From: an uncultured Chthoniobacterales bacterium
GTDB taxonomy: Bacteria > Verrucomicrobiota > Verrucomicrobiia > Chthoniobacterales > SZAS-18
Length of the DNA: 32,000 nucleotides
NCBI GenBank assembly: GCA_964246635.1
Contig: CAXTRS010000002.1
Span: 15,066-47,065 of the forward strand
Direction of reading: 5' to 3'
In this document: positions 3,801 to 32,000 of the stretch, piece after piece
Position numbering within the stretch: position 1 is the stretch's first letter
Layout: each line of letters starts with the position of its first letter
Position numbers and translations under genes: made by a program
Notes under the pieces: model-generated
What the model saw: only the letters and a program-made list of their open reading frames with translations
What the model was told of the DNA's origin: nothing
Databases searched by the model: none

Positions 3801-3882
3801 GAGTAACGGACCGATGATGCTAACGATAGAGAAGTGTAAAAAGTTCTTTAATGTTTGAATGGAACTCCATAAAATATTCTTC

Positions 3883-5889: not shown

Positions 5890-5928
5890 CGGTTGTGCTC
5901 AGTTGTCGCACATCCGCCGGTCCACTTT

Positions 5929-7222: not shown

Positions 7223-9181
7223 TCAAATCGTGCGCTTGTCTCCGGTTTTCGGCAGCATTCGCAAATCGCCCTGCCGTCTCGTCACCCCTTCTCGATCGAG
7301 ACGCTCTAGAAATGGCACCAGAATGCGGCGTGTGGTTCCAAGCGCCTGACGTAGTTCACTGGTTGTTGAAGCGCCATGTGCCTGCAGGTGTCGAAGGACT
7401 GCCGCGCGCATGCGCACAAAGCTGGCTGCCGAGAGCACAACCTCGGCGGTGAGTTCCACGGCCTCGCCGGCCTGCACCAAAAAGCGTAGCGCGCTTTGCG
7501 TCAGCGCGTCAGGTGCCAGGACAGCACGCGAAGCTGGCTCGAGAGGTTTTTCCATCAATGCCGCGCGCACGCGAGCCGCCGCAGCTTGCAAATTGGTCGG
7601 CAGGGCGGGGTGATGATCGGCGCGCCGGATTACCGTGTGATTGACGGTGAAGCCTTGCGTCGCTTGCATGTCGGCGATCAAGGCATTGGTCCATCGCACC
7701 GGTGAGCGCCAGGCTTTCGTCAGTGCGTGCTGTAGCTCGAGCAAAGGCAGGCCGGCGCGTTCTGGGTGCTGGCGATGTGCGGTGTCAATAAGCGCGGCGG
7801 CGCATTCGCGCTGAGTCCGCCACCAAGGTCCGTCGGCGGCCAGTGTCGAATTCAAAAAGATCTGGTTGTTCGCGTGCATCTCGCGCAAAGCGGCGGCAAT
7901 CTCAGCGGCGGAAAATCGAGATTGCACGAGCAAGCTCTCGCGGAGGGCAACTCGGTCGCGAGTGAGCTGGGTTGCGAGGAAGACAACCACATTGTCCGAC
8001 GCTTCTGCGCGGCGTTGGAGGAGAGTTCGGCGTGTCGCGGCGCGCCAGCCACGCCGGCTGGTGGCAGGTTCCAAGACGGTGCCCCCGGCGAGGGTCGTCC
8101 GGCCGGAGGCGTCGCGCACAATGAAACGGTCGCCCGCAAAGGCAAAGATCGGTGTGTCCAAACGGACTTGAGCAATGTCCCGCTCCGCCGGGGGGAGCGT
8201 CGCTCGATCCAGCAGAAAAACTCGCGCCGCGTAGCTGCCGCTGCCGAGATGAATGCGCACGCCGCTGCCGCTTTTCAAGAGGGGACCGGTGCTCCCAACC
8301 CGCGCGGAGCGAACGAGCTGCGCGTCGAGGGTATCACTCGATCCGCCCAGCGAAGCGAGCGTGACGACATGCCCGCGACGCAGCGCGCCAGGTTCCGCGA
8401 CGTCGGCGGACAAGTCGGGCAGATTGAGAGCTACGCGGCTGCCGGGTTGACCGGCTTCCACCTCGCGGCGGTAGCTCTGCACGCTGCGCACGCGCGTTGT
8501 GCGACCGCTTGGTTGAACCACGACGTTTTGCCCGCGGCCCAACGAACCGCCGCTGAGCGTGCCGGTGACCACTGTGCCGACTCCACGCAGGGCGAACACG
8601 CGGTCGATTGGCAGGCGCGGCTTGCCGATGTCGTGTGCCGATGGAACGTGCGCGAGCACTCGCGCGAGCGTTGCACGGAGCGGCTCCAATCCGATGTGCT
8701 TGATGCTGGAAACCGGCACGATGGGAGCACCGTGCAGCGAGCTGCCGGCGAGATGGTGTCGAATAGCATCGCTGGTCTCGACGATCCGCTGCGACGTCAC
8801 GAGATCAATTTTCGTCAATGCAATGACGCCGAAACGGACCGCGAGATAATCGAGAATTTGCAGGTGTTCCTCGCTTTGCGGCATCCAGCCATCATCAGCG
8901 GCGACGACGAAGAGCGCGACATCCACCGCGCCCACGCCGGCGACCATGTTTTTGATGAAATCCTCGTGCCCTGGCACATCGACGATGCCGACACGAAAGA
9001 TTTTGTTCGCATCGTTTTGCGCCGGAAGATCAAGGTGCGCAAAACCGAGATCGATCGTGATCCCGCGTTTTTTTTCCTCGGGGAGCCGATCGGGGTTGAT
9101 CCCGGTGAGTGCCTGGACGAGCGCACTCTTGCCGTGATCGATGTGCCCGGCGGTGGCAAGGATGAAAAATTGGTCGATCAT
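7223..9181 (-). CDS. selB: selenocysteine-specific translation elongation factor SelB
   Basis: 652 aa. The GTPase motifs are AGHIDHGKSALVQALTG, DVPGHEDF and TKIDL. A long C-terminal winged-helix extension is typical of SelB. The gene lies in an operon with selA, selD and tRNA-Sec. Confidence 0.93.
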   Translation of the reverse strand: MIDQFFILATAGHIDHGKSALVQALTGINPDRLPEEKKRGITIDLGFAHLDLPAQNDANKIFRVGIVDVPGHEDFIKNMVAGVGAVDVALFVVAADDGWMPQSEEHLQILDYLAVRFGVIALTKIDLVTSQRIVETSDAIRHHLAGSSLHGAPIVPVSSIKHIGLEPLRATLARVLAHVPSAHDIGKPRLPIDRVFALRGVGTVVTGTLSGGSLGRGQNVVVQPSGRTTRVRSVQSYRREVEAGQPGSRVALNLPDLSADVAEPGALRRGHVVTLASLGGSSDTLDAQLVRSARVGSTGPLLKSGSGVRIHLGSGSYAARVFLLDRATLPPAERDIAQVRLDTPIFAFAGDRFIVRDASGRTTLAGGTVLEPATSRRGWRAATRRTLLQRRAEASDNVVVFLATQLTRDRVALRESLLVQSRFSAAEIAAALREMHANNQIFLNSTLAADGPWWRTQRECAAALIDTAHRQHPERAGLPLLELQHALTKAWRSPVRWTNALIADMQATQGFTVNHTVIRRADHHPALPTNLQAAAARVRAALMEKPLEPASRAVLAPDALTQSALRFLVQAGEAVELTAEVVLSAASFVRMRAAVLRHLQAHGASTTSELRQALGTTRRILVPFLERLDREGVTRRQGDLRMLPKTGDKRTI

Positions 9182-10311: not shown

Positions 10312-11682
10312 TTAACGAAACAGGGAGTGAATGGCGCGAACCAAAATCTCATCCTGGCGCGGAAAAATGGTGCGCAAATCCAGCAGCAGCCGACCGGTGG
10401 AAATGTAACCAATGACCGGCGGTGAGCCAAGCCGCAGACGCGCGGCGATTGCGGCGAGCGAATGATTTTGCGGCGCAAGGGCGAGAGCGACGGACGGGAT
10501 GCGCGCGCGCGGCAGCGTGCCGCCGCCGATTCGTGCCGCGCATTCGACGATGCGCAGATGCAGCGGCAGATCGCCGAGTGCGCTGGCGATGTTTTCCGCG
10601 CGCGCGCGCAGTTCGGCGCTGGAGACGCGCAGCAGTCCGAAAACCGGGATTTCGTCGCTACGGTTGGCCAGGTGGTGATCGACCGTGGCTTGCAGCGCGC
10701 CAAGAATGAGTTTGTCACAGCGCAACGCGCGAAAGAACGGTTCGCGCTTGAGCGCGGCGATCCATTTCCGGCGGCCGGCAATGAGACCAGCCTGAGGTCC
10801 ACCGAAAAGTTTATCGCCGCTACAGCAGACGAGATCGGCACCATCGCGCAACGCTTCCGCTGGCGTGCGTTCGTGTTCGACACCCGCCGCCTGGCTTTCC
10901 GTCGCCACCACCGCGCCACTGCCGAGATCTTCGACAAACGGAACCCGGGCCTTGCGCGCCAGCGCTGCGAGTTCGGCAGCATCGGGCGATACGGTGAATC
11001 CACCCTGGTAGAAATTGGAACGGTGGACTTTCAACACGAGCGCGGTGTCGAGGCCGAGCGCGGCGGCATAGTCGGCGGCGTCGGTTTTGTTCGTCGTCCC
11101 GCCCTCCTTGAGCTTCGCGCCGCTGGCTTCCAAAATTTCTGGAATACGGAAGCCGCCGCCGATCTGGATGAGTTCGCCGCGGGAAATGACGACCTCTTTT
11201 TTCGCACGGCGGGTGAAATGCCGCACCACGAGCACGAGCGCGGCGGCGCAGTTGTTGACGACCGCCACGGCTTCGGCAGCGCAAAGCAACGCGAGGTTCC
11301 CTTCCAGATAGCCGGCCCGCGCACCGCGTTCGCCGGTCGCGAGATCATACTCAAGATTGTTATAATTTACGGCGAGATCGGCGAGCGTCGCGACTGCCGA
11401 CGCGGCGAGCGGCGCACGGCCAAGGTTGGTGTGAATGATGACCCCAGTGCCGTTGATTACCGGCTGGATGCGCGAGCGCCAGAGATCTTCCAGGGCGCCG
11501 CGGACGCGAGCGAGCACAGCGTTGAAATCTGGTATCGGGCCAGACTTGATTTCTCCGCGCACGCTCGCCAGTTCGCGCCGGATCGCGGCGACCACGGCGG
11601 GACGCGGAAGATCGAGCGGATCCAGGGCTTGGAGCAGCTTCTCGACCGAGGGAATGGCGCGGAGAACAGGCGACGGATTCAC
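10312..11682 (-). CDS. selA: L-seryl-tRNA(Sec) selenium transferase SelA
   Basis: 456 aa with a GTG start. The N-terminus LRAIPSVEKLLQ and the PLP-lysine region CCSGDKLFGGPQAGLIAG are characteristic of SelA. Confidence 0.93.
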   Translation of the reverse strand: MNPSPVLRAIPSVEKLLQALDPLDLPRPAVVAAIRRELASVRGEIKSGPIPDFNAVLARVRGALEDLWRSRIQPVINGTGVIIHTNLGRAPLAASAVATLADLAVNYNNLEYDLATGERGARAGYLEGNLALLCAAEAVAVVNNCAAALVLVVRHFTRRAKKEVVISRGELIQIGGGFRIPEILEASGAKLKEGGTTNKTDAADYAAALGLDTALVLKVHRSNFYQGGFTVSPDAAELAALARKARVPFVEDLGSGAVVATESQAAGVEHERTPAEALRDGADLVCCSGDKLFGGPQAGLIAGRRKWIAALKREPFFRALRCDKLILGALQATVDHHLANRSDEIPVFGLLRVSSAELRARAENIASALGDLPLHLRIVECAARIGGGTLPRARIPSVALALAPQNHSLAAIAARLRLGSPPVIGYISTGRLLLDLRTIFPRQDEILVRAIHSLFR

Positions 11683-11725: not shown

Positions 11726-12787
11726 CTACCTCACCGAGATTTTCGGCTGAGCCGAGCGGACAATTTGACCGATGATGCGGACGCAGGGTGTGCGTTGCTT
11801 TTTCAGCAGCGCCATAACCTCCGTCTGCTTTTTCGGCCGCACGCAAAGCAGCAGCCCGCCGCTGGTTTGTGCGTCGGCGAGCAGGAGGCGCCGAGCAAGA
11901 TCACGCGTGTGCCATTCCGTGACCTCGTTCGCGGTTTCCAAGTTTTGCCGGCTGCCTCCGGGAATGCAGCCGGCTGCGATCAGATCAAAAATTTCCTCGT
12001 GGATCGCCGGCACTCGCGCCGCCTCTATCTCTGCGCCGACGCCACTGGCCTGGCACATCGAAATGAGGTGGCCCAGCAGGCCGTAGCCCGTGATGTCTGT
12101 TGCCGCGCGCACCAACCCAGCTTCGGCTAATACCGCGCCAGCGGTATTGAGCCGGGTCATCAGCGCGACGGCTTTCTTTTCCAACGCCGGCGAGCAAAGG
12201 CCGCGCTTGAGCGCCGTTGTGGCGATGCCGGTGCCGAGGGGTTTCGTTAGAAGGAGAAGGTCGCCTGGCCTGGCGTGCGCGTTCGTCATCATCCGTCGAG
12301 GGTTTACCAGCCCCGTCACTGCCAAGCCGTAGATCGGTTCAGGATTGCGAATCGAATGGCCGCCGATCAGCGCGCACTTCGCTGCTCGCGCCACGCTGGC
12401 GCCGCCGCGCAGGATTTGTGCGATGACCTCCAACGGCAGGAGATCGGTCGGCACACCGAGCAATGCCAGTGCGGTCAATGGCCGGCCGCCCATCGCGAAG
12501 ACATCGCTCAGCGCATTGGTCGCGGCAATGCGTCCATAGGTAAAGGGATCGTCCACGATCGGCGTAAAAAAATCAACGGTCTGCACCAGTGCGCGAGACC
12601 CCGTGGACAGCGGCAGGCGATAAACGCCCGCGTCATCCGCGGTGGCACTGCCGACGAGCAAGTTCGTGTCGCTCGGCAGGCGAGGTAGGTGACGCAAAAC
12701 TTGCGTCAGAGCCGTCTGGCTCAACTTTGACGCTCAACCGGCGCAGCTCGATAGGGCCGTCAGCTTCAGGCTTGCTTTACGCGACAT
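11726..12787 (-). CDS. selD: selenide, water dikinase SelD, Sec-containing form (in-frame UGA at 12734..12736, residue 18)
   Basis: ORF-track entry 11726..12724 starts at TTG just after an in-frame TGA. Reading through gives MSRKASLKLTALSSCAGUASKLSQTALTQVL... from ATG 12785..12787. This reproduces the SelD N-terminal glycine-rich loop, in which Sec/Cys precedes xxK (E. coli GAGCGCK). The rest of the protein is clearly SelD-like (NLLVGSATADDAGVY...). Confidence 0.88.
12691..12736 (-). promoter_or_regulatory. selD UGA plus candidate SECIS region (two hairpins)
   Basis: Two hairpins follow the UGA on the minus strand. The first is GAGCC-AGAC-GGCUC (plus coordinates 12709..12722). The second is GACGCAA-GUU-UUGCGUC (12691..12707), with its loop 33 nt after the UGA. 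I cannot decide by eye which of them, if either, binds SelB. Confidence 0.4.
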
Positions 12788-12827: not shown

Positions 12828-12926
12828 TGGCGGAGAGGGCCGGAATCGAACCGACCTCGCCTGCGCGAACGCAGGCCGACAGCAGTTTTGAAGACCGCGA
12901 GGGCCACCAGGCACCCATCACTCTCC
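12828..12926 (-). tRNA. selC: tRNA-Sec (anticodon UCA), 99 nt including encoded CCA
   Basis: The minus-strand sequence is GGAGAGTGATGGGTGCCTGGTGGCCCTCGCGGTCTTCAAAACTGCTGTCGGCCTGCGTTCGCGCAGGCGAGGTCGGTTCGATTCCGGCCCTCTCCGCCA. It has a long acceptor stem, the anticodon loop CUUCAAA (UCA), a long variable arm (CUGUCGGCCUGCGUUCGCGCAGGCGAG) and a GGTTCGATTCC T-arm. It lies immediately upstream of selD. Confidence 0.92.
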
Positions 12927-16293: not shown

Positions 16294-17456
16294 ATGAAAG
16301 ATCAGCCATCGCATCCACTCATTCCCCGGTATTCCACCGAGGAATTCCACGAGGAGTCTCTCGTCGGAAGACGCCAGTGGGTCGAGCAAATGACGGGGGC
16401 GAATCTTTCGATGATCGGGCAGGGAAAAATTCCCGCAGCGGCGATGCGCGGAAATTTGGAAAATGCGATCGGCACGGTGCAGATGCCGTTGGGGATTGCG
16501 GGCCCGCTGCTCGTCCGTGGCGAGCACGCGCAGGGCGTATTCTATGTGCCCCTGGCAACAACGGAAGGTGCTCTCGTGCGCTCATATGAGCGCGGCATGG
16601 CGCTCTTAACCCGAGCTGGAGGCGTGGAGGTTCGGATTGAGCGGGATGAGAATCAGATCAGCCCGACTTTTCAGTTTGCCGGCGTCGCGCAGGCGGCGGC
16701 GTTCGCCCGTTTCATTGCGGAAAATGTTGAGGAGTTGCGCCGGCACGCGGAGGCGACCACCTCGCACGGGAAATTGCTCGCCGCCGAGCCGCTGGTAGTA
16801 GGGCGAGATGTAGTGGTGGTCTTCCGCTACCACACAGGCGATGCACACGGGATGAACATGATCGCGAAAGCGACCGACGCCGCTTGTCGTTGGCTGGTGA
16901 AGCACAGCAACGCCGTTTCCTATCTGCTCTTTAGCGGCCTCAGTGCCGAGAAGCGCCCGAGCGCTCGTGGTCTGCTGGGTGGTAAAGGCAAGAAGGTCAC
17001 TGCCGGAGCGGAGATCCCTGCGAAATGGGTGCGCCTCTACCTGCATACCACACCCGAAGAACTGTCCGATCTTTGGCGAAGGACGGTCGTGGGTAATATC
17101 ATGGCTGGGGCCATCGGATACGGTGGTCACTGCGCAAATGGCCTCACCGCCCTCTTCATCGCGTGCGGACAGGATGTCGCCAATGTCGCAAATTCGGTCG
17201 TCGGCCTCACGAGCTTCGAGGTCACTCCGAAGGGGAATCTTTACGCTTCATGCACTCTAAGCTCGCTCGTCGTCGCGACGGTGGGTGGGGGGGTGGACCT
17301 GGGAACAAGCCGCGAATGCCTCGCGTTGCGCGGAAGCTCGCGGAAATCGCCACCGCCGCCGCACTGGCGGGGGAACTCTCTCTGGGGGCCGCACTGGCCA
17401 GCGGAGAATTCGTCGCGGCACATGAAAATTTTGGACGCAACCGGCCGCTTGCCTAG
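16294..17456 (+). pseudogene. HMG-CoA reductase-like (class I-type catalytic domain) oxidoreductase, frameshifted near 17326..17330
   Basis: Motifs: ENAIGTVQMPLGIAGPLLV, VPLATTEGALV, GDAHGMNMI, FIACGQDVANV and ATVGGGVDLGTSRECLAL. After ECLAL the ORF-track frame becomes nonsense and overlaps the next gene. The conserved C-terminus ARKLAEIATAAALAGELSLGAALASGEFVAAHENFGRNRP is in the frame of ORF 17163..17456 and stops at TAG 17454, 8 nt before the next ATG. Confidence 0.75.
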
Positions 17457-17464
17457 TCTCTGCC

Positions 17465-18959: not shown

Positions 18960-19397
18960 ATGACTCTGAACCGAGAACAACTCCAAGAACTCTTGCCGCA
19001 TCGTCCGCCGATCTTGATGCTGGATAAGGTCATTGACGTTATCCTGCGCAAGAGCGGGAAGGGAGTGAAGCGCTTCCTGGAAGATGATCCATGTTTCGCC
19101 GGACACTTTCCCGGCATGCCTATCCTGCCGGGCGTTCTGGCGATCGAAGCCCTCGCCCAGACAGCGGCCGTCGTATTCCTCGCAGAGAACCTGACGGCTG
19201 GACGCCCGCACGCCCCCAGTCTGTTAGGCAGGGTGAACGAAATGGCATTTTTTCATCGAATCGTGCCGGGTGATGAGATTGAATTCGCAATCGAAGTCGA
19301 GCGAATTGTCGGCCCATTCGCCTTTGTCAAGGGTGAGGCGACCGCTGGCATTAAGCAATGTGCCCGTGGCAGATTAACGCTCAAGATAGCAGGATGA
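18960..19397 (+). CDS. FabZ/FabA-like 3-hydroxyacyl-ACP dehydratase (hot-dog fold)
   Basis: 145 aa. LPHRPPILMLDKV and the active-site region FAGHFPGMPILPGVLAIEALAQ are both present. Confidence 0.85.
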   Translation: MTLNREQLQELLPHRPPILMLDKVIDVILRKSGKGVKRFLEDDPCFAGHFPGMPILPGVLAIEALAQTAAVVFLAENLTAGRPHAPSLLGRVNEMAFFHRIVPGDEIEFAIEVERIVGPFAFVKGEATAGIKQCARGRLTLKIAG

Positions 19398-19415: not shown

Positions 19416-21149
19416 ATGGAACGGCATTACGACATCATTATCGTCGGCGCAGGCCTGGCAGGATTGACCCTCGCCCGACAATTGTTGCTCTACACTGACA
19501 AAACTATCCTTCAGCTTGATCGCGAGCAAAAGCTTCCCATCGCGCGCCAGAAACTTGGCGAATCCAATGTCCAAGTCGCCGGACATTATCTCGCGAAGAT
19601 ACTCGACATGGAGGAGCACCTCATCCACGAGCACGTGATGAAATATAACCTCCGCTTCATGTGGAAGGCGGCGGGAACCACCGGCGTCAATTTCGAGGAT
19701 TACAGCCACTCATACATCCGCCAATTCTCGAACATCCCGGCTTATCAGCTCGATCGCAATAAGTTCGAAGCTGAACTGATTCGACGAAATCAAGCGGATG
19801 CCCGTTATCTCTTGCTGGAGAACTCAAAGCGGTTGGATGTGTCGCTGGGCGAGGGTGAAAGCAACCACCGCATGCGCTTCGAGCGACTGGGAGAGTGTCA
19901 GGAGGTGACCTGCCGTTGGCTGGTGGATACGTCGGGGCGCACGAGGCACCTGGTCCGCCAGCTCGACTCCGAGCGCGAAAGCGAAATTCTTCATAGCGCA
20001 ACATATTTTTGGGTCGATGGAGCAGTCAACGTCGAGAAGCTCACCAGTGCCTCCCTCCAAGAGATACGTAAGCGGCCGGAAAGGTGTCGGCTCGGGCACG
20101 CCCCCTTCTGGCTGGCTACGAATCATTTCGCCGGTGAAGGTTTCTGGTTCTGGGTAATTCCGCTCCATACGCGGACCAGCTTTGGCTTGGTATATGACAA
20201 CCGCTGCATCGATTCGCGGGATGTTTCAACCAAGGATAAGATGCTCACCTGGCTCTTCCGCCAATTTCCGCTCTTCGAGCGGGAGCTCGCGAATCGCGAG
20301 ATTATAGACTTCTCCGTGCTGCGAAACTATTCGTATGACTGCGCGCGGACGATTCACGCGAACCGATGGGCGATATCGGGATTTGCTGGGCGATTTAACG
20401 ATCCACTCTACAGTCCGGGCGGCGACGCGATCGCGATTCACAATACCCTTATCACCGATGCGATCCTGACGGATGACGACAATGAGTTGGTCGCCAAGTC
20501 AAATGCGTACGAGATATTGATGCGGACGGTTTATCTTTCCTTTCTCCCATCGTTTCAACGCAGCTATAATGCGCTCGGCGACCAGGAGACGTTTGCCATG
20601 AAATATGCTTGGGAGCTCTCGATTTATTTTGCATTCTACGTCTTTCCGTTTCTTAACGATCTTTTCTGTGATCGCTATTTTCTCGTTCCTTATCTCAGAC
20701 GCTTTTCGCAGTTGGGCGAGCTGAACCGCAGTCTGCTGGCGTTTATCGCCGATTATTACGACTGGAAAAAGGCGAACAGACCGAAGCCTGAGCGTCCCAT
20801 TTTTTTCGACTTTACAGAAGTTTGCGCACTTAGGAAAGCGGAGTCCACTTTCTATATGATTGGCGGAGACACAAAGGCCGCGCTCCGAGAGCTGGATTGT
20901 CAGCTCGATTCCTTGCGCGAGTTAGCCCGCCTCTGCGTCGCCCATGTGCATGCAGTGGTCGCCGGTGACCTTGGCCTGATGACGAGCCGCGCCCATGTGG
21001 AACAGATCGATTTAGGGAAGATCCAATTCTCGGCCGATGAAATCAGACAACGCTGGTGCAGCGTGCCGAAGCGAGTCGGAGACGATTTCGCGTGGAGCAT
21101 CGACGCCCATGTCTTCCGCCGCCGATTCCATTCTGAGGTCCCGGAATGA
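19416..21149 (+). CDS. flavin-dependent halogenase-like protein
   Basis: 577 aa. It has GxGxxG (IIIVGAGLAGL), a KLGES segment, the WxWxIP signature (GFWFWVIPL) and FxxPxxSxG (FNDPLYSPGG). Confidence 0.7.
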   Translation: MERHYDIIIVGAGLAGLTLARQLLLYTDKTILQLDREQKLPIARQKLGESNVQVAGHYLAKILDMEEHLIHEHVMKYNLRFMWKAAGTTGVNFEDYSHSYIRQFSNIPAYQLDRNKFEAELIRRNQADARYLLLENSKRLDVSLGEGESNHRMRFERLGECQEVTCRWLVDTSGRTRHLVRQLDSERESEILHSATYFWVDGAVNVEKLTSASLQEIRKRPERCRLGHAPFWLATNHFAGEGFWFWVIPLHTRTSFGLVYDNRCIDSRDVSTKDKMLTWLFRQFPLFERELANREIIDFSVLRNYSYDCARTIHANRWAISGFAGRFNDPLYSPGGDAIAIHNTLITDAILTDDDNELVAKSNAYEILMRTVYLSFLPSFQRSYNALGDQETFAMKYAWELSIYFAFYVFPFLNDLFCDRYFLVPYLRRFSQLGELNRSLLAFIADYYDWKKANRPKPERPIFFDFTEVCALRKAESTFYMIGGDTKAALRELDCQLDSLRELARLCVAHVHAVVAGDLGLMTSRAHVEQIDLGKIQFSADEIRQRWCSVPKRVGDDFAWSIDAHVFRRRFHSEVPE

Positions 21150-22603
21150 ATGAGAAACTTTCACTCGCGCCAATTCTCTTCGAGCCTCCCGTTGAGAGTC
21201 TGGTCGAACTGTACGCCACCGAAGGCGCTATTCCACCGTTGCTCTGTGGAACCTACTACCTCAATGGGCCTGCCAATTTCCGTCGCGGAGACTTTACCTA
21301 CACGCACTGGCTTGACGGCGACGGTTTGATTCGGGCGCTACGCTTCGCCGATGGCCGCGCGATCCACTGCTCACGCTTCGTTCGTTCTCGAAAGTATCAA
21401 GATGAGCACGCGGCCGGCCGGCCCCTCTACCGAGCTTTTGGGACAGTGTTTCCGAACGATCGCCTGCGCCGTCGCATCGCGCTCGAATCTCCGGTCAACG
21501 TCAGCGTTTATCAATTCGAGCAGCATCTTTTCGCGTTCGGAGAGCAATGCCTGCCGTGGGAGCTTTTGCCCGAAACTCTGGAAACGGTGGGAGAGTGCAG
21601 TTTTCGTCGATTCTTTCCCGAGATCAGCCCGTTCTCGGCGCATCCGAAAATTGATCACGACGCTCGGCGCCTCTGCAATTTTGGGCTGAAGTTCGGCATG
21701 ACGGGCAGCAAGCTTGCCTACTGGGAATTCAACGCGAACCTGGCGCTACACTTTGAAACCGAGTTTGCGGTTGAGTTGCCGTATTCCGTTCACGATTTTG
21801 CGCTCAGCACGCGTTTCGCCGCCTTCTATCTTAGTCCTTACTTATTGGAGGTCGCGCCCTTCCTGCGTCAGGGCCGCTCGCTTTTTGACGCCCTGGCCTG
21901 GCGCCCAGAGCTGGAAAATGTGTTGCTGTTGACCGAGCGAATTCCCAAAGGAAAAAAGTGGCGTATTCCGATAGATTGTCGGGGTTACTGCCTGCACTTG
22001 ATCAATGGGTTTGATGACGGAGACACGATGGTGATCGACGTTATCGAGACTGAGGAACCCCTCTATCCACAGTATCGTCCGCTGCCCGATCTATTTTCGA
22101 CCGTCAAGCCTTGCGCGATCGTTCGTCTTCGGATCGATGTGCGCTGCGGGATGGTGCTCGAGGTGTTGGAGGCGCCACTACAGGTGCATTTGGATTTCCC
22201 TGCGCTGCTGCCAGAAAGCCACGGGAAACCCTATCGGAAAGTATGGATGCTTGGCATGCCGACAGAGCCGCGCAACGCATCAAAGTATTATGATCGCCTC
22301 CTCTGTTTCGATTGGGACCAGCGTGCCATTGTCGATCAATACGTTCCCCCGCCGGGGGTGTATCTCTCAGGCGAGCCTTCCCTTTTGAGAGCAGGATCTG
22401 CTGAAGCCGAGGCGCTGCTGATCTGCCCCCGCTGGCATGCCGCAGAGAACCGCAGCGATTACATTCTCCTCAATGCTTTTTCTCTTTCGACCGCGCCGAT
22501 CGCAGTCCTGCCGTTGCCGCATCCAAGTCCGCTGGCCTTTCATTCCAGCTTCGAGACCGATGCGAAAACTTTTTCCTTTCCAAAGCCGCCGATTTCTCCT
22601 TGA
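21146..22603 (+). CDS. carotenoid cleavage oxygenase (RPE65/CCO/lignostilbene dioxygenase) family protein
   Basis: 485 aa; its ATG overlaps the upstream stop (ATGA). The family N-terminal region reads GTYYLNGPANFRRGDFTYTHWLDGDGLIRALRF. Further His contexts are FSAHPKIDH, SVHDFAL and YCLHLINGF. Confidence 0.8.
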   Translation: MNEKLSLAPILFEPPVESLVELYATEGAIPPLLCGTYYLNGPANFRRGDFTYTHWLDGDGLIRALRFADGRAIHCSRFVRSRKYQDEHAAGRPLYRAFGTVFPNDRLRRRIALESPVNVSVYQFEQHLFAFGEQCLPWELLPETLETVGECSFRRFFPEISPFSAHPKIDHDARRLCNFGLKFGMTGSKLAYWEFNANLALHFETEFAVELPYSVHDFALSTRFAAFYLSPYLLEVAPFLRQGRSLFDALAWRPELENVLLLTERIPKGKKWRIPIDCRGYCLHLINGFDDGDTMVIDVIETEEPLYPQYRPLPDLFSTVKPCAIVRLRIDVRCGMVLEVLEAPLQVHLDFPALLPESHGKPYRKVWMLGMPTEPRNASKYYDRLLCFDWDQRAIVDQYVPPPGVYLSGEPSLLRAGSAEAEALLICPRWHAAENRSDYILLNAFSLSTAPIAVLPLPHPSPLAFHSSFETDAKTFSFPKPPISP

Positions 22604-22660: not shown

Positions 22661-25189
22661 ATGGAAACTCCTCCTAGACAAGCGAAACCGGCCCAAAGAC
22701 GTCGACGCCTTGTCAAAGCACTGGTGGCTGTCGTGATCATCGGCTTGGTCGGGAGTGGTGGCGGTTGGCTTTACGTACGACACGTCGGGGCTGAGGCCAA
22801 ACGCGTCTATGAGCTGGGTTCGACCCTCAATGCGTTCTTCGCGCGGTATTCCACCTCCCTCAAGAAGCGAAACGTTGAAGGCATACTCGACCTTTACGAT
22901 TCGAACTATCTCAGCGAGCGAGAGGGGTTGCTGAAAGAGGAGCTTAGTTGGCAGGACGGAACTGCGCCGGAGATCGAAAGCCGGGTGCGCGTCTATACGG
23001 TGAAGGAAACTGATGTCCATCGTTTCGCCAAGGGTGACGTGCGTCAACAGATCGAAGCGCAACTGGCGGCGATGGATTACATTAATTTTGCAAAATTCAA
23101 GATCGAGAGAATCGAAGAGCAAGCCGGCTCAGACCGTGCGACACTGAAAACGCTGCTCTGGCTCCGCGGGCAGCAGGAAAGTGGCGAGACCGTTGAGACA
23201 CATATCTACCTTCGCCTATGGCTTTCGAAAAACGACGGTTGGAAGATTGAGCGCCGAGAATTTTTGGGCGGCACGACCGTGCGCGGCAGAGGGAAGGGCA
23301 TTACCGAGGTGACGTCGCAGGCGGGATTGGACTTCAAAGCGCATCACAACCCAATGTTTCTCGAAGAGCAGTGGAAACCAGAGATGTTTCAAATAATGCG
23401 CTATTCCCATGGCGGTGTGGCAACTGCGGATTACGACAACGACGGCTGGTATGATATCTACCTGTGCGATGGGGAACGGCCGCGGCTTTACCGAAATCTG
23501 GGGAATGGAAAATTTGAGGACGTAACGAAGAAAGCCGGGCTCCCGGAGACGCTGCCGGGGGTGCATGTGGCGATCTTTGCGGATTTTAACAACGATGGAT
23601 TTCCTGATCTATTCCTCGGCCGCTCAACGGCCTAGAACAAGCTCTACCGCAATAATGGGGACGGCACCTTTACCGATGTCACGGAAGGAGCCAACATTGG
23701 CGGTTATTGGGTCTCAACGGCGTCGGCGATCGATTACGACAACGATGGCCTGATCGATCTCTATTTGGGGCGTTACCTCGATCCGCGCAAGAATGTGCCG
23801 ACTACGCTCTTCTACACCCGCAACGGCGAAGGGAACACGCTGCTCCATAACGATGGGAATTTCAAATTCACCGATGCGACGACGAAGGTCACGCGCGAAG
23901 GCGGCTTGACTCTCGGGCTCGCCTGGGGCGATTTCGACGGGGACGGCAAGCCGGACGTATATGTGGTGAACGATTTCGGCCGCAACGCTCTGCTAAAGAA
24001 CAATGGCGACGGAAACTTTACCGATGTCAGCCAGGCCACCGGGACACTGGATATTGGATATGGGATGAGTTCGACGTTTGCGGATTTCAACAATGATGGC
24101 CGGCTGGACATCTACGTTTCCAACGTCCACTCCGGGCAGCGCTGGTTTGGCAATGAAGCGACGCTGCGCAATTACTTAGTCACTTCATTCAAACAGGGGA
24201 CTATTCGCGAGGATCGCAAACTGTTTGAGGAAATTCGCGGCTTCATCGGAAATAATTGGGAAGACTTTGGCGAACGCGTCATCCGCGGTAATTCGCTCTT
24301 GCTGAACCGCGGCACCTACTTCGAGGACGTTACGGAGCAGGCGCAGGTCAATCCCCACGGTTGGTATTGGGGCGGCGTTGCCTTCGATTATGATAATGAT
24401 GGCCTACTGGACATCTATATCGCCAATGGCTGGATCACCGGCAAAAAGCCGGACGATCTCTGACTACCTTATATTTCGTCCGCGGTCGCGGACATTAAAG
24501 CCTACAAATCAGGAAAATTCTACTCGGACGAATTTCGCGGAGACAGTTCCTGGAACGGCGACGAACATAACGTCCTTCTCAAGAACCTCGGTAACGGTCG
24601 CTTTGTCGATGTAGCGCTCGCACTCGGGTGCGACGATGTCCGCGATGGGCGCGGTGTCGCCGTAGCCGATTTCGATAATGACGGCGATTTCGATATTGTG
24701 GTAAATAACAATCCTGGGATCGGCCAGGAAGTAGCGCCGGTGCTGTATCGCAATGACATCGGGCAACGGAACAATTGGCTGGAGGTCGATCTTGTGGGCA
24801 CGCTCGCGAACCGCGATGCGGCGGGCTCAGAGGTGCGGTTGGAATTGCCGGACGGTCAGAAGTTGATGCGGCATGTGGTAATCGGCTCTGGGTATGCCTC
24901 CCAGCAGAGTCGGCGCCTCGGATTCGGCATTGGCAAGGCGACAGAGATCTCCAAGCTGCACGTCCGCTGGCTCGGACCGGGCGGCGGCGAAGACACATTC
25001 GAGCATGTGACGCCCAACCAAATCCTTCGCATCACCCAAGGCGGGAAAGGTCTGCCAGCCACACTCCTCACGCATAGCGTGCCGGCCGGGCAGGATAGCG
25101 GAGCCCAGCTCGGCCAGACCCCGCCGGCGGCAGCCCCGCTCGCTACTTCCGCGAACCAATCCGCCGCGGTGCCAGTCGCGCAGCCATGA
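22661..25189 (+). CDS. membrane-anchored CRTAC1/ASPIC-UnbV family FG-GAP (VCBS) repeat protein, paralogue 1; in-frame TGA (24461, predicted Sec) and in-frame TAG (23633, possible pseudogenisation)
   Basis: ORFs 22655..23635, 23765..24463 and 24698..25189 share one frame, and the two stops are the only interruptions. Conserved FG-GAP sequence fills the gaps between them. There is an N-terminal TM segment (LVKALVAVVIIGLVGSGGGWLYV), repeated DxDxDG/LYRNxGxGxFxDVT units, and a C-terminal UnbV_ASPIC-like region (NNWLEVDLVGTLANRDAAGSEVRL...GSGYASQQSRRLGFGIG...VRW). Confidence 0.75.
24461..24493 (+). promoter_or_regulatory. UGA plus SECIS-like hairpin (GUCCGC-GGUC-GCGGAC) in paralogue 1
   Basis: The TGA is at 24461..24463. 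The 6-bp stem spans 24478..24483 and 24488..24493, and the GGUC loop is at 24484..24487, starting 20 nt after the UGA. Confidence 0.7.
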
Positions 25190-27693
25190 ACGCAATCGCC
25201 TCTCATCCGCCGAAGCCGGCGCGCGGGCGGCGGTGGCTTCTGATCTTGCTTGCCGCGGTCGCAGCGCTGCTTTTGATAATCTGGGTTGGAGCGATGCTTT
25301 ACATGCGCGCCGCTGACGCGGAGTTCCTCGCGTTTCGCGATGCCGGTGTTGGAGTCAATAAATGCCTGAAATCCTTTGGACAGGCCGTTACCGATGCCGT
25401 CGCGTCGCAGAAGTTCGATGAGGTTGGCGGCTACTACGCCGCGGACTTCCAAGCGCCTGGGCGCGGACATTGGAAGCTCGCCGAGCCGATCGTTCACAAC
25501 GGGATTTCGTTTGAGTCACTGCAGAAAGTCGATTCCGTTGACTTCAACCGTGCAGCGGCTGCCGAGCACTGGAGCGCCTATCTGGCGGGCTTGGCAAAGG
25601 TGCAAAATTTCGAATGCAAGATCAATCTAGCCGAGGATATCCAACCAGGAAAAACGGCGCGGGTGACAGTAAAATATATCGTTGATGCGCTGGATCGCGC
25701 GGGGCGCCTGGTGCAGGATCGATTTTTTTTCCGCTGGTGGCTGCGCGTCAGCACCAACGGGCATGGATGGGAGATCGTGCGAGAGGAGTTGCTATCTGAT
25801 CCGGAGGTTTCGAATGTCCGAGTCACCGGCTCTGGCAACGGTTTTGAGCTCGTGGACCTGAAGAAGGCGGGGATCGATTACGTTCATCACCGCGACCCCA
25901 ACCTCGATCCGACGCGTCCGGGGGTAAACCTGAAGTTTCAAGTTATCGAGCACTCCCCCGGAGGCGTCGCCGTAGCCGATTTCGATGGCGACGGCTGGCC
26001 TGATATATTCTTTTGCGATGGAAAGCAAAGCCGCCTTTACCGCAACTTGGGGAGCGACGGAGCTGGAGGATGCAAGTTCGAGGACGTGACTCAACAGACT
26101 GGACTGAGCGGCATCGACCGCGCCACCTGCGCTTTGTTTGCGGATATCAATAATGACGGGCACAAAGACTTGTTCGTCGGGCGTTACGGCGCGCCGTGCC
26201 TTCTCTACATCAATAATGGCGATGGCACCTTCACAGAGCGCGGCCACGAAATGGGACTCGACCTGGTTCAGCCAGTAACTGCGGCCTGCCTGCTCGACTA
26301 CGACCATGACGGATTCATCGACCTCTACCTTGGCGTGAATGGCGATGCGGTGCACGAAGTGCCGCGCATTCCGTTTTTCGCCCGCAACGGCCTGCCAAAT
26401 CGGCTATACCGAAATCTGCAAGGCAGGGGCTTTCAAGATGTGACAGCGCAGGCAGGCGTAGGGGACACCGGCTGGAGCCTCGCTGTGTGCGCGGGCGACT
26501 TTGACGGGGACGGCTGGACGGATTTGGCCGTGGCCAATGACTTCGGGCGAAAGAGTCTCTACCGCAATAATCGCAACGGCACGTTTACAGAATGTGCCAA
26601 GGAGGCCGGAACGCTCGATTTTAGCGGGGGCATGGGAATTTGCATGGGCGACCTCGACGGCGACGGGTGGGCCGACCTCTATACATCGAATATCTATTCC
26701 AATCAGAGGTGGCTCGGCGAGGAGAAGGCGTTGCTGCAGTATGCTCGCAACACAGTTCGTTCCAGGTGGATATTTCGGGATTTCGGCGAATTTCGCGATC
26801 TCTACCAGATGGTAAACGGTGACTGGCGATCGGTGGGACGAATGGCCGGCGAGGGTAACTCGCTTTTCCGTAACAACCACGACGGCACTTTCCGCGAGCA
26901 GCGCGAAAGCTGCACCAACCGCGCCGGTTGGGGCTGGGGTGTCGCGCTCTTCGACGCGAATAACGATGGTCGGCTCGATATTTTCGCCGCGAACGGCTGG
27001 ATCACCGGTGAAAAAAAGGACGATCTCTGACTACCTTTCCTTAGCGGTGCGGTCGCACTGCTCGATGATTACAAGGACGGACGTTTCTTCGGCGAAGGTT
27101 TCGTCGCAAATAACTCGTGGAATGGCTGGGAGCGCAAGCTTCTCTTCCTCAATCTCGGTGATGGGAAATTTGACGACATCGCACGCGCCGCCGGCTGCGA
27201 CGACATCCGGGACGGCCGCGGAGTCGCAATCGCCGACCTGGACAAAGATGGCCGACCGGATGTGATCATCAACAACAACAATGCCGCACCGACCATCTAC
27301 CTGAACCGACTGCCGGCCACTGGAAACTGGTTTCGCTGCACCTTGGTCGGCGCAGCGGGGAAAGGCGGTAGTAACCGCGACGCCGTGGGAGCCCGCGCAA
27401 CGCTGCGCACCACGGTCGAAGGAGCACCGCGACAGACCGTCCGCTGGGTGGAAGCAGGCTCCGGTTATGCGGCGCAATCCGAAGTGACGCTTCATTTTGG
27501 CCTCGGCGATGCCCGGGTAATCGATGGGTTGACCATTGCCTGGCCTTCCGGCCTCACCCAGGAGATTACCGCTAAGGAATTGGAAGGCTTGGTAAATCGC
27601 GAGTGCATTATCGTGGAGAACCACGGGCTTACCCCGATTGGACAGACTGCTGGCGGGCATAACACCGCTGTGGCAACTCCGGCGCAGCACTAA
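25186..27693 (+). CDS. membrane-anchored CRTAC1/ASPIC-UnbV family FG-GAP (VCBS) repeat protein, paralogue 2; in-frame TGA at 27028 (predicted Sec, residue 615)
   Basis: ORFs 25186..27030 and 27262..27693 share a frame, with no stop in 27031..27261. That gap encodes conserved sequence (NLGDGKFDDIARAAGCDDIRDGRGVAIADLDKDGRPDVII). The architecture matches paralogue 1: a TM segment, FG-GAP repeats and a UnbV_ASPIC-like C-terminus (GNWFRCTLVGAAGKGGSNRDAVGARATL...GSGYAAQSEVTLHFGLG...IAWPSG). The ATG overlaps the paralogue 1 stop (ATGA). Confidence 0.8.
27028..27062 (+). promoter_or_regulatory. UGA plus SECIS-like hairpin (AGCGGUGC-GGUC-GCACUGCU) in paralogue 2
   Basis: The TGA is at 27028..27030. 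The 8-bp stem (including one G-U pair) spans 27043..27050 and 27055..27062. The GGUC loop is at 27051..27054, again starting 20 nt after the UGA. Confidence 0.7.
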
Positions 27694-27706
27694 GCGCGGT
27701 GGGCGC

Positions 27707-28684
27707 ATGGCCCCGCTCATGAATATCCACTCGCACGCGTTTGCGGCGATCGGGCGGCAACAGCGGGCGTTGGTGAGGCACATTCATCCACCGGTGCGCT
27801 CCGATGGCGATCCGCTGAGTCGGCAAATTGTCAACGAATTCGGCTTCGTGCCGGCGCCGGTCTTGTTGCACGATTGCACCGACGGGCTTTTCGCCGGCAG
27901 TTGGATGCTCCTGCGCGAGACGATGCTGGTCGGGACGGTGCCGCGTGCGGAGAAGGAATCCCTCAGCCTCGCGATTTCCCGCGCGAACCGATGCCCGTTC
28001 TGCGTCGAGAGCCACGGCATGGCGCTGGCGGCTCTACACGCGAAAGTAAATGGAAATTTAATGGAGGAGCGAGAGCGGTCGCCGGAGGAGAGATCGGAGA
28101 TTAATGGCACGACCGTGCTTTTCCATTACCTGAACCGAGTGGTGAACGTCTTTCTCGATGAATCTCCTCTGCCCCCGCTGCTGCGGCTTCGTGCCTGGCG
28201 ACCGGCTTGGCAGCGGATTGGCGGATGGACCTTCGCGCCGCTCGCTGCGGAACGACTTGTTCCCGGCGAATCTCTCGGCTTTCTGCCGGAAACTCCGCTT
28301 CCTCCAAATCTATCATGGGCGCAAGGGCAGCCCCATCTTGCCGGCGCTTTCGCGCGCTTTGCGGATGCGCTGGAAAATGCCGCGCGGACTGCTTTACCAC
28401 CCGCTACCCGTGAACTCGTTCAACGGCAAATCAATTCCTCCGTCATCGCCTCGACCGAAAATACCGAGGCATGGATAAGCGGCGCGACGTCCGGTCTGCC
28501 CGTCGATGACCGCCCGCTCGCGGTCCTTGCTCTGCTCGCTGCCTTCGCCTCCTACCGCGTCTCCCCCCAGCACATCGAGGCAGCGCGAGACGGCGGCGCA
28601 GATGACTCGACGCTGGTAACGACCGTTGCTTGGTCGGCCTTTACATTGGCCAAGATTCTCGGCACGATTTCGCCTACCTATTGA
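27707..28684 (+). CDS. AhpD-like / carboxymuconolactone decarboxylase (CMD) family CxxC redox protein
   Basis: Based on ORF 27638..28684; the start is probably ATG 27707, 13 nt after the upstream stop. It carries the AhpD-type motif RCPFCVESHG (CxxCxxxH). Confidence 0.65.
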   Translation: MAPLMNIHSHAFAAIGRQQRALVRHIHPPVRSDGDPLSRQIVNEFGFVPAPVLLHDCTDGLFAGSWMLLRETMLVGTVPRAEKESLSLAISRANRCPFCVESHGMALAALHAKVNGNLMEERERSPEERSEINGTTVLFHYLNRVVNVFLDESPLPPLLRLRAWRPAWQRIGGWTFAPLAAERLVPGESLGFLPETPLPPNLSWAQGQPHLAGAFARFADALENAARTALPPATRELVQRQINSSVIASTENTEAWISGATSGLPVDDRPLAVLALLAAFASYRVSPQHIEAARDGGADDSTLVTTVAWSAFTLAKILGTISPTY

Positions 28685-28687
28685 TCT

Positions 28688-29796
28688 TCAGCAGGAGTTA
28701 CGCACTGTGCGGTAGTGCGACCATGCTTTGGATGAAGGTGCAGATAGCTTGGTCAGCGCAGTGGCGCTTGAACTGATACCAAGAACCGATCTGCCCACCG
28801 CAGCGCTGTTCTTCGAGGTGCAGAAAAGCGCGGAGCGAACAGAAGAGATGGTTGGCGATGGCGCGCTTCCAGCGCACGAAAAAACGGCCCACGTGGCAGA
28901 CTGCCTTGAGCGCATGGTGGTGGCACTCGATCTGCCACTGCCGGCTGCGGATGCACCTGCAATGCGCGAAGGCGATCTTCATGCGCTTTTTTTTCGTGGG
29001 TCGAACTGCGCGTAGTGTCTCGCGGTGCCGTGTTTGTCCACCGTGCGAAACAGCGTCACAAAGCCGACCCGGCGCAGGTGCACCACCTTGCCCTTGGCAG
29101 GCAGCTCCAGCGCACAGACTGGCGCGTAGGCGTGCGGCGCTTCGCTGACCACGCGGTTGTTGTTCTCCAGGGCGATCAAGAAGCCCAGTCCCTGGTCTTT
29201 TAGGAACTTGAGGTTTTCCACGCCCGAATACCAACTGTCGGCCGTCACCGCCGCCGGGCGCAGGCCCCAGCCGAGCACTTCTGCGACCATCTCGCCAAAG
29301 AGCGCGTTCTTGGTCTTGGCTTCCGCCTTGTCCACGAGCCGGTAGTTGACCGGCGCCGAGAAGCCGCGCCGGTCGGTGTAGAGCAAGCTGACCAGGCAGA
29401 CGCCCTTGACGGCCGCGCCCGCCTTGCTGCTCCAGAAGTAGCCCACCAGGTCCACCTTGCCCTCCTGGCTGTAGGGCTTCTCCACGACCGTGTCATCGAC
29501 GCTGAGCGTGCCGCCGTCCAGGTCGATCAGCGCCCGGGCTTGCTCGAACAAGTCCTTGGGGCTGAAATGCTCGCGGTTCAAGAAGCGGTTGGCCGCATCG
29601 TGGGCGAAGGCTCCGCCGCTCACCTCGGCCAGCCGCACGCAGCCTGCGCTCTGGCTCTCGGCCAGCAGAAAGGCCGTGTAGTGCTCCAGCGTGCAGAGGG
29701 CCGTCGAGGGCTTGGCAAGCGTGCGCATAAAACGATCCCTCTAAAGTCGCCAGATTTTACTCGCTCTCAAGCGTCACGGTGCGTAACTCCTGTTCA
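28688..29796 (-). mobile_element. IS4/IS701-like insertion sequence (~1.1 kb) inserted 3 nt after the AhpD-like stop codon
   Basis: The terminal inverted repeats have a 14-bp perfect core: CAGGAGTTACGCAC (28692..28705) against GTGCGTAACTCCTG (29779..29792). They extend to ~18 bp with mismatches and enclose a DDE transposase gene. Confidence 0.7.
28698..29728 (-). pseudogene. IS4/IS701-like DDE transposase split by a frameshift at an A8 tract
   Basis: The N-terminal part is ORF 28979..29728 (DDTVVEKPYSQEG..., TADSWYSGVENLKFL). The C-terminal part is the end of ORF 28698..29234 (...RQWQIECHHHALKAVCH...). The two frames meet at CGAAAAAAAAGC, the minus-strand reading of the T8 run at 28987..28994. 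Confidence 0.65.
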
Positions 29797-31077: not shown

Positions 31078-32000
31078 CTAATCCTCGCTTCTCGGGACGT
31101 AGAGCGTATGTGCGGACGTATATTCTTCGTAGCCGGCCCGCCCATTTTCATATCCCAAACCCGAGAATTTTAGACCGCCGAGCGGCACACCGGGGTCCGT
31201 GAGGCCATGGCGATTTATCCACACGGCGCCGCATTCCAACCGGTCTCCTAACGCCCCGGCGCGCTCGACATCCGCAGCCCAGATCGAACCACCGAGGCCA
31301 AAGTTCGTCGTATTGGCGCGCGCGAGAGCGTCCTCAGGATCGCTGAAGCGGAGAATCGGCAGGACCGGTCCGAACTGTTCATTCGCAACCAGCGGCGCTC
31401 TTTCGTCCAGATCCGTCACGAGCGTGGGCATAAAAAAATAACCGGGACCAGGCAAAGGCGAGCCACCGGCGAGAAACTCCGCATTCCGATTCCGCGCATC
31501 CTCAACAAGGGAGCGCACGCGCGCCAATTGAGAAGCATTATTCAACGGTCCAAGCTGGCTGGATGGTTCCAAGCCATTTCCGACACGGACGCTCTTCGCA
31601 ATCTTGACTAACTCGCGCACGAGCGGTTGATAGACTCGGTCATGCACGTAGAGGCGCTTGATCGCGAGGCAAACTTGGCCGCAGTTCTTGAAAGCGCTCC
31701 AGAAAATCGCCTCCACGATCTTCGTTGGATCGACGTCGTCCATCACGATCGCGGCATCGTTGCCGCCGAGTTCGAGCGTTATCCGTTTGAGGTCATCCGT
31801 CGCAGCGCGGGCGACGGCTTTGCCCGTCGCAATGGAGCCTGTCAGGGAAACCTTGCGCACATTCGGATGGGAGGAAAGCGCGGCGCCGAGGTCATCTCTC
31901 CCGGCGATCACGTTCACCACTCCGGCAGGCAGCACCTCGCGAAAAATCGCACCCATCTGAAGTGTCGTCAGCGGCGTAAATGGAGACGGCTTCAAAACGA
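31078..32000 (-). CDS. NAD(P)-dependent aldehyde dehydrogenase family protein, C-terminal ~305 aa; 5' end lies outside the window
   Basis: It carries the ALDH catalytic motifs ITLELGGNDAAIV (Glu) and FKNCGQVCLAIKR (Cys), plus EQFGPV. The frame stays open to nt 32000. Confidence 0.88.
   Translation of the reverse strand, partial: VLKPSPFTPLTTLQMGAIFREVLPAGVVNVIAGRDDLGAALSSHPNVRKVSLTGSIATGKAVARAATDDLKRITLELGGNDAAIVMDDVDPTKIVEAIFWSAFKNCGQVCLAIKRLYVHDRVYQPLVRELVKIAKSVRVGNGLEPSSQLGPLNNASQLARVRSLVEDARNRNAEFLAGGSPLPGPGYFFMPTLVTDLDERAPLVANEQFGPVLPILRFSDPEDALARANTTNFGLGGSIWAADVERAGALGDRLECGAVWINRHGLTDPGVPLGGLKFSGLGYENGRAGYEEYTSAHTLYVPRSED

Follow-up and report, generated by a model that had tools for sequence, protein, structure and literature searches.

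In a 32,000-nucleotide stretch of DNA from an uncultured Chthoniobacterales bacterium (contig CAXTRS010000002.1, positions 15,066 to 47,065; the whole stretch is called the window below), two adjacent genes for FG-GAP propeller proteins of the CRTAC1/ASPIC-UnbV type each carry an in-frame UGA codon, followed at a fixed distance by a small RNA hairpin. Judging from their sequences and those of their relatives, both genes very probably belong to a large and genuine family of selenoproteins, in which the UGA is decoded as selenocysteine (Sec). At this codon the ribosome would meet the elongation factor SelB, carrying Sec-tRNA(Sec) and bound to the GGUC-loop hairpin downstream. Selenocysteine would then be inserted in place of termination, and the product would be one protein of ~835 residues, not a fragment of 614 residues and a separate C-terminal piece.

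The pair was first noticed in a reading of the window by itself, called here the original prediction, and the UGA codons, hairpins, 20-nt spacing and flanking peptides that it described are all present:

Paralogue 1 ('LPY' type), 22661..25189, plus strand: read-through coding sequence of 842 codons with two internal stops (TAG and TGA)
In-frame TAG of paralogue 1, 23633..23635, plus strand: codon 325, outside the recoding signal
Sec-UGA codon of paralogue 1, 24461..24463, plus strand: residue/codon 601
Bacterial Sec insertion sequence (bSECIS) hairpin of paralogue 1, 24478..24493, plus strand: GTCCGC-GGTC-GCGGAC, a 6-bp stem with a 4-nt GGUC loop
Paralogue 2 ('LPF' type), 25186..27693, plus strand: complete read-through coding sequence of 835 codons, its single internal stop being the TGA
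Sec-UGA codon of paralogue 2, 27028..27030, plus strand: residue 615
bSECIS hairpin of paralogue 2, 27043..27062, plus strand: AGCGGTGC-GGTC-GCACTGCT, an 8-bp stem that includes one G.U pair, with a GGUC loop

The stop codon of paralogue 1 overlaps the start codon of paralogue 2 (ATGA), and the two proteins are ~39% identical to each other. Their UGAs share one alignment column, '...ANGWITG.K.DDL-TGA-LP[F/Y]...', and the spacing from TGA to GGUC loop is exactly 20 nt in both. A published bSECIS model has an apical loop of 3-9 nt and an upper stem of 4-16 bp (PMC13188914, Fig. 2A), a G at loop position 1 or 2 that is usually followed by G or U, a distance of 16-37 nt from UGA to apical loop and a minimum free energy (MFE) of -7.5 kcal/mol or lower (PMC13188914). 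Both window hairpins fall within it in every respect: loop, stem, loop G, spacing and MFE. The 50-nt stretch that begins at the UGA has an MFE of -11.1 kcal/mol in paralogue 1, where the hairpin makes up 82% of the ensemble, and of -15.1 kcal/mol in paralogue 2 (centroid -11.6). A scan of Rfam at gathering thresholds returned tRNA-Sec only and no match for the hairpins, which is expected because Rfam has no model for such an element.

Relatives of the two genes come from many genomes. A protein search with the read-through sequence returned 7633 of them, and the best 120, which we inspected, have all been called as proteins of 484-667 aa, none of which covers more than 74% of the query; all 120 end in '-DL' at the UGA column (DDL in 90, TDL in 22, others in 8). 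A separate scan of one genome per species returned 397 relatives, and its best 80 loci, used for the gene-level counts below, hold 85 gene instances (84 distinct). Their sources are Verrucomicrobiota, Planctomycetota, Acidobacteriota, Latescibacterota, Poribacteria, Multivoradales and a metagenome-assembled genome (MAG) labelled 'Deltaproteobacteria', that is, six or more phyla. The codon at the column is TGA in 84/84 distinct orthologous genes and TAA or TAG in none of them; ahead of it lies an unbroken frame of ~600 aa, and ~200-240 aa follow in the same frame.

The hairpin is conserved as well. Across the 84 Sec-type genes the loop reads GGUC in 78, GGUA in 3, CGUG in 2 and AGUU in 1, at a spacing from the UGA of 20 nt throughout the LPF and LPY clades and of 22 nt in a third, 'LDF' clade. 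A core stem of 4 bp is found in 82/84 Sec-type genes, compared to 0/24 homologues that encode Glu at the column. Within this stem, the pair +18/+27 is C-G in 49 genes, U-A in 30, G-C in 1 and A-U in 1, and is unpaired in none; both positions are synonymous third codon positions. The two positions covary with a score of 0.291; shuffles score 0.126 +/- 0.014, none of 500 attaining 0.291, and controls with the partner slid along score no more than 0.104. RNAalifold yields the same core stem. The original prediction had read compensatory changes from the two window stems, with loop and spacing kept; among orthologues, too, the hairpin covaries at synonymous sites. Over the 57 nt after the UGA, the MFE of the orthologues ranges from -7.7 to -22.6 kcal/mol.

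The original prediction had also asked whether homologues carry Cys, or TGA plus a hairpin, at this column; besides the TGA and hairpin counts just given, Cys does occur there. An exhaustive profile-free search with a segment that spans the junction yielded one full-length homologue with Cys at the Sec column ('HDL-C-LDF'), P0165, of 814 aa and 40% identical over 624 aa, with which we then ran a second search. The second search returned 8 full-length Cys-type clusters (again 'HDL-C-LDF'), 56 further clusters that end at '-DL', including proteins 69% identical to P0165, and 50 full-length Glu-type proteins. Cys forms exist, but most non-Sec relatives have Glu. In the closest comparison, one locus (L081) has TGC at the very column where two others (L084 and L085) have TGA, with flanks that are ~83% identical; the three sites (L081 7738, L084 7741 and L085 2301) have a common GH3/MMPL/desaturase neighbourhood. 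The TGA form of this LDF clade has a hairpin of its own, UUGGGC-UGGAC-GCCCAA, which is disrupted in the Cys form L081. In a neighbour-joining tree, the Cys forms are nested at two places within a Sec clade; the tree is distance-based, midpoint-rooted and rough, and we use it for this nesting only, not for the direction of change between Glu and Sec.

Some genomic settings of these counterparts may be recorded here. The LDF clade, with its Cys and Sec forms, is separate and lies in a different lipid-related neighbourhood (GH3, MMPL, fatty-acid desaturase, sulfotransferase and Rieske genes). Three Latescibacterota loci, L064 (2956-7126), L074 and L077, have a full-length Glu-type gene in the operon slot of the Sec-type genes, directly after genes for an HMG-CoA-reductase-like protein and an amine oxidase; in L064 the Glu-type gene is followed by a second FG-GAP/ASPIC gene of a different subtype. 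Another Latescibacterota MAG, L016, has the two Sec-type genes.

The two window genes are not equally intact. All fragments of each lie in one frame, as the original prediction had it, but it omitted the additional in-frame TAG of paralogue 1, 276 codons upstream of the UGA. This TAG would be either a recent nonsense mutation, by a single G-to-T change, or a sequence error. Because it would halt translation before the UGA, unless it is such an error, Sec insertion by paralogue 1 in the present organism is uncertain; the claim that both proteins incorporate Sec is thus supported for the UGA and its SECIS, and left in doubt for paralogue 1 as it stands. That paralogue 1 is a pseudogene here, inactivated by the TAG, so that only paralogue 2 would yield a selenoprotein, is a serious alternative, although we lean slightly against it. 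The closest relative, L089, has GAG where the window has TAG, and its LPY-type gene is intact as far as its own TGA; LPY-type genes at other loci are uninterrupted too, and the column of the TAG is not conserved (P/R/E). Insertion sequences upstream of the sel genes and just downstream of the operon would fit some local decay. Yet paralogue 1 shows no frameshift and no lesion other than the TAG, everything else in the gene, UGA and hairpin included, is fully conserved (it is 77.6% identical to L089), and the lone G-to-T change could also come from faulty assembly or sequencing or from a minor variant within the population.

For Sec to be inserted, the cell must make Sec-tRNA(Sec) and SelB. In fact, the window holds selA, selB, selC and selD, all ~10-18 kb upstream of the two FG-GAP genes; the original prediction had named them, and domain, ARAGORN and Rfam matches bear it out:

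tRNA-Sec (selC), 12828..12926, minus strand: anticodon UCA; found by ARAGORN and by Rfam RF01852 at 62.8 bits (gathering score 47)
selD (selenophosphate synthetase), 11726..12787, minus strand: itself of the Sec type, with a TGA at 12736-12734 ('SSCAG-U-ASK')
selA (selenocysteine synthase), 10312..11682, minus strand: PF03841 SelA, E 2.5e-117
selB (Sec-specific elongation factor), 7223..9181, minus strand: domains GTP_EFTU, Beta-barrel_SelB and SelB-wing_3

The selB product includes the C-terminal winged-helix domain, which is the SECIS-binding part. A nested hairpin, GCGUCA...GAGCC-AGAC-GGCUC-UGACGC, starts directly after the UGA of selD. This gene is a selenoprotein gene of the known UxxK type, and lists of open reading frames show it only as the 332-aa portion downstream of its UGA. 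A transglutaminase-core gene (9203-10297, minus strand) lies between selA and selB within the cluster.

Could the UGA be read by a route other than Sec, through near-cognate insertion of Trp or Cys or under a reassigned code, the hairpin doing no more than stimulate read-through? The inserted amino acid cannot be told from sequence alone, and in some systems a hairpin that follows a stop codon can favour read-through. A reassigned code is ruled out, however, since TGA is an ordinary terminator here, ending 9/15 confident genes of the window, which therefore uses the standard genetic code. The complete Sec system nearby, the fit of the hairpin to a SelB-type bSECIS in spacing, loop size and loop G, and the presence in homologues of Cys, the usual counterpart of Sec, at the column also speak against such decoding, and we regard it as very unlikely.

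We find it highly improbable that the UGA is a real stop between a conserved pair of separate genes, one for an N-terminal propeller and one for a C-terminal UnbV_ASPIC protein. This is how the databases annotate the region: gene callers split the genes at the UGA everywhere, and TGA is a normal terminator in the present organism. Against this reading, the codon is TGA in every orthologue, whereas the actual terminators of the same genes are a mixture of TAA, TAG and TGA. The ~80 codons after the UGA are moreover under protein-coding constraint, the conservation of the three codon positions just after the TGA (0.80/0.83/0.66) being a protein-coding signature. No restart codon is conserved after the TGA among the orthologues, in which the earliest potential start varies in position from codon 5 to past codon 80; in the window the first in-frame ATG, GTG or TTG is the 79th codon after the TGA in paralogue 1 and the 78th in paralogue 2, and the original prediction was right that no start follows soon. 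Finally, full-length homologues with Cys, Glu and other residues at the column are single polypeptides, and a confident single-chain model (see below) has propeller strands both before and after the UGA.

We give hardly any credence to the idea that the hairpin is a mere by-product of coding for the conserved peptide G/S-A-V-A-H, with no role at the RNA level: GCG-GTC-GC, which encodes the conserved Ala-Val-Ala, is indeed partly self-complementary, but the synonymous third positions in the core are near-fixed (GCG 96%, GTC 93%) whereas the four-fold sites nearby are variable (32-64%), the two pairing third positions covary perfectly, the hairpin is missing from all the Glu-type genes, and the LDF Sec clade, which argues against this idea by combining another peptide with another hairpin at a similar spacing, has a Cys sister without a hairpin.

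Several observations nevertheless weigh against a family that decodes UGA as Sec, or against parts of the function that we propose for it. Taken alone, each window hairpin weakly beats its shuffles (z -1.9 and -2.1), of which 9/200 and 11/200 fold as well as or better than the two hairpins; the window hairpins are thus only marginally above chance, and it is the comparison with relatives that carries the case. At 4 bp the conserved core stem is short, and because it overlaps the conserved Ala-Val-Ala peptide, coding accounts for part of its conservation. Glu rather than Cys stands at the column in the nearest non-Sec relatives, an unusual situation among selenoproteins. A UxxC or CxxU motif is absent, the context being DDL-U-LPF/LPY with no Cys nearby, and no Cys is invariant or even 90%-conserved in the N-terminal 614 residues, hence no conserved partner Cys. 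The TAG of paralogue 1 precedes its UGA, and recoding of the UGA leaves it unexplained. Among the genomes that carry the family, the Sec machinery is established for the window only; a tRNA scan of 59 orthologue loci (short flanks) found no tRNA-Sec near the orthologues, so that the closeness of sel genes and operon may be particular to the present genome. Lastly, the substrate, the redox role, the redoxin partner and the periplasmic side are all read from gene context and sequence features.

What kind of protein would result? Both read-through products match FG-GAP_3 over six stretches with 179.5-185 bits (Pfam cut-off 26.9) and UnbV_ASPIC with 60.5-63.6 bits (Pfam cut-off 23.4). We modelled the read-through product of paralogue 2 with AlphaFold2, placing X at the Sec position. 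The model has a mean predicted local distance difference test score (pLDDT) of 91.6 and a predicted template modelling score (pTM) of 0.91, and is a single unit, continuous across the UGA. It begins with a membrane helix preceded by basic residues, which suggest that the bulk of the protein is probably periplasmic, and continues with a small alpha+beta domain (~96-202), a beta-propeller (~260-710) and a UnbV_ASPIC beta-sandwich (714-817); paralogue 1 shares this architecture. Sec615 lies between a strand (609-613) and a helix (617-624) of the model, in a conserved insertion between propeller blades, 'NGW..(4-12 residues)..DL-U-LP[F/Y]'. The propeller strands at 643-707 and the entire C-terminal domain are encoded after the UGA, and stopping there would thus leave an incomplete propeller. 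Foldseek gives murine CRTAC1 as the best solved match (9etn_A, E 5.9e-26, template modelling score 0.73 when normalised by the target, 17% identity), and this protein is also matched at the sequence level (E 1.2e-16). The next structural matches are integrin-like propeller lectins, and no enzyme of known mechanism is among the solved proteins matched in structure or sequence. The original prediction had offered a Cys downstream of the UGA (LGCDD/AGCDD) as a resolving partner. We reject this candidate: Acidobacteriota orthologues have S, A or T in its place (GSD, GAD, GTD).

A different residue appears to be tied to the Sec column. About 30 positions after it lies a motif, 'SW[N/H]G', whose variable residue tracks the column: it is Asn in 77/77 proteins with Sec and in 8/8 with Cys, and His in 74/75 with Glu. 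Because the two residues track together, they suggest a coupled active-site pair, the second member of which falls at W645-N646 in paralogue 2 (about 27118-27123). Sec would then serve in catalysis or redox chemistry, in functional coupling with the SWNG Asn. From the gene context described below, the enzyme may act on a lipid or polyene-like product of its own operon, and the Sec protein would probably be kept reduced by a TlpA-like lipoprotein redoxin (W-C-x-x-C), found in the operon in other genomes. In full, these would be selenium-dependent, periplasmic CRTAC1-like propeller enzymes, in which Sec-Asn replaces Glu-His and a thioredoxin-like lipoprotein serves as reductant, all within a widely conserved operon of Acidobacteriota, Planctomycetota, Verrucomicrobiota and their allies. 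We put this forward tentatively, and consider it unlikely to hold in its entirety. If it did, selenoenzymes would gain a new chemistry, with a polyene or lipid as substrate, and the CRTAC1/ASPIC fold would have its first catalytic role.

Upstream of the two genes, the window holds a series of biosynthetic genes on the same strand, and one more gene follows directly downstream (FAD, flavin adenine dinucleotide; HMG, 3-hydroxy-3-methylglutaryl):

13565-13831, plus strand: acyl carrier protein (ACP)
13828-15048, plus strand: ketosynthase (KS)
15045-16289, plus strand: KS/chain-length factor (CLF)
16294-17496, plus strand: HMG-CoA-reductase-like gene
17465-18958, plus strand: FAD amine oxidase
about 18960-19397, plus strand: FabZ/ApeI-like dehydratase
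19416-21149, plus strand: FAD halogenase/lycopene-cyclase-like gene
21146-22603, plus strand: RPE65-type dioxygenase
27638..28684, plus strand: AhpD-domain protein with a CPFC motif ('RCPFCVESHG'); TIGR00778 ahpD_dom, E 1.5e-11

From its listed start the AhpD gene would share 56 nt with paralogue 2, so its true start is probably later. The same gene order is found in other phyla, and the operon spans at least four (L083, L086, L087, L088 and L089). Elsewhere it comprises a regulator, ACP, KS, KS/CLF, in some cases the FabZ/ApeI-like dehydratase, the HMG-CoA-reductase-like gene and the FAD amine oxidase, and then one or two FG-GAP(Sec) genes, a PlsC-like acyltransferase, an AhpC/TSA-family redoxin and ABC1 kinases; an FAD monooxygenase-like gene and an RPE65 dioxygenase are often present too. 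The HMG-CoA-reductase-like and amine-oxidase genes lie directly upstream at 43-45/60 Sec-type loci. The window thus has the upstream part of the conserved operon plus the AhpD-domain gene. The operon redoxins of other genomes have a signal peptide, a lipobox Cys and W-C-x-x-C, and resemble the periplasmic reductants TlpA and ResA. From its gene content, the operon looks like an aryl-polyene-like lipid pathway. A literature search for a description of it found nothing relevant, and the conserved operon appears to be undescribed.

The recoding mechanism itself is the known bacterial one; what is unusual is the fold, the likely location, the Glu counterpart and the breadth of the family. As in Escherichia coli fdhF and genes of its type, the in-frame UGA has directly after it a hairpin whose apical loop is small and contains a G, decoding depends on selA, selB, selC and selD, and Cys homologues exist. 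In fdhF, too, the loop reads GGUC, and it lies about 18 nt downstream of the UGA. Unlike fdhF-type genes, the present family has Glu in most of its non-Sec relatives, and its SECIS core is unusually invariant across phyla in the LPF and LPY clades. Glutathione peroxidase has Sec in its active site together with Gln, Trp and Asn, and offers a likeness at the level of motifs only, which we note as a lead: a lone Sec without a partner Cys, Trp-Asn (here in SWNG) and a thioredoxin-fold redoxin (here in the operon). The present family differs in fold, and we identified no conserved Gln in it. With CRTAC1 and other CRTAC1/ASPIC-UnbV proteins (PF07593; 9etn), the family shares an FG-GAP propeller followed by UnbV_ASPIC, the same fold and a probable extracytoplasmic location. 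CRTAC1 is, however, a secreted vertebrate protein without Sec and with no known catalysis, and the bacterial proteins add a membrane anchor, the N-terminal alpha+beta domain and conserved insertions between blades, one of them with the Sec.

The original prediction proposed a new selenoprotein family, and comparison with existing catalogues agrees. The most complete catalogue of prokaryotic selenoproteins, dated May 2026, lists 119 families and subfamilies (PMC13188914, Table 1), and this Table 1 has no entry for FG-GAP (PF13517/PF01839), VCBS, CRTAC1 or UnbV_ASPIC (PF07593). The present protein is unrelated to any of the 119 families and, in contrast to fdhF-type and catalogued genes, has no thioredoxin-like fold, UxxC/CxxU motif or molybdopterin site. 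NCBIfam models gave no match to the read-through protein at E <= 0.001, and the family goes unmentioned in deep-Sep, in the main text of BSepDB and in the Haft preprint (bioRxiv 10.1101/2022.07.06.499078). A literature search found no link of selenoproteins or selenocysteine to FG-GAP, VCBS, ASPIC, UnbV or CRTAC1; database names for members are 'VCBS repeat-containing', 'CRTAC1 family', 'FG-GAP repeat domain-containing' or 'hypothetical' protein. Closest in kind are Haft's 'unexpected selenoprotein families' (bioRxiv 10.1101/2022.07.06.499078), which were likewise recognised from truncation at one column, conserved coding downstream of the UGA, gene neighbourhoods that are conserved, and homologues with Cys. 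Those families belong mostly to anaerobes, with CU/UxxC motifs and metal or organometal chemistry, whereas the present one is a family of Acidobacteriota, Planctomycetota, Verrucomicrobiota and related phyla in which a lone Sec sits within a propeller.

If this family is what we think it is, it would add a large group to the prokaryotic selenoproteome, from abundant soil and sediment phyla (Acidobacteriota, Verrucomicrobiota, Planctomycetota, Latescibacterota and Poribacteria), and would correct hundreds to thousands of database entries in which one such protein at present appears as two, a truncated 'VCBS repeat' or 'hypothetical' protein and a small piece with UnbV_ASPIC. The members of the family would differ from most known selenoproteins in not being thioredoxin-like; they would have no partner Cys and would probably be extracytoplasmic. 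The Glu in the nearest non-Sec relatives would provide a fresh case in which to ask what selenium does beyond sulfur or a carboxylate. The family also flags a conserved biosynthetic operon, and could give a functional foothold on the CRTAC1/ASPIC fold, whose biochemical role is obscure even in vertebrates.

Genes at the margins of the window complete the picture. Mobile-element genes flank the region of sel genes and operon (1990-2976, plus strand; 5886-7118, minus strand; 28698-29728, minus strand). Upstream of selB they encode an rve integrase and an ISL3 transposase, and just after the AhpD-like gene, where the operon goes on in other genomes, two IS701 transposase fragments. At 3859-5511 (plus strand) is a gene whose 550-aa product combines DUF6851 with a VCPO second helical-bundle/PAP2 domain and is similar to vanadium haloperoxidases or acid phosphatases. 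An aldehyde dehydrogenase gene (31078-31995, minus strand) is cut by the window end; such a gene recurs near the operon in two Verrucomicrobiota-like loci, at 3140-4567 of L082 and at 14643-16043 of L089.

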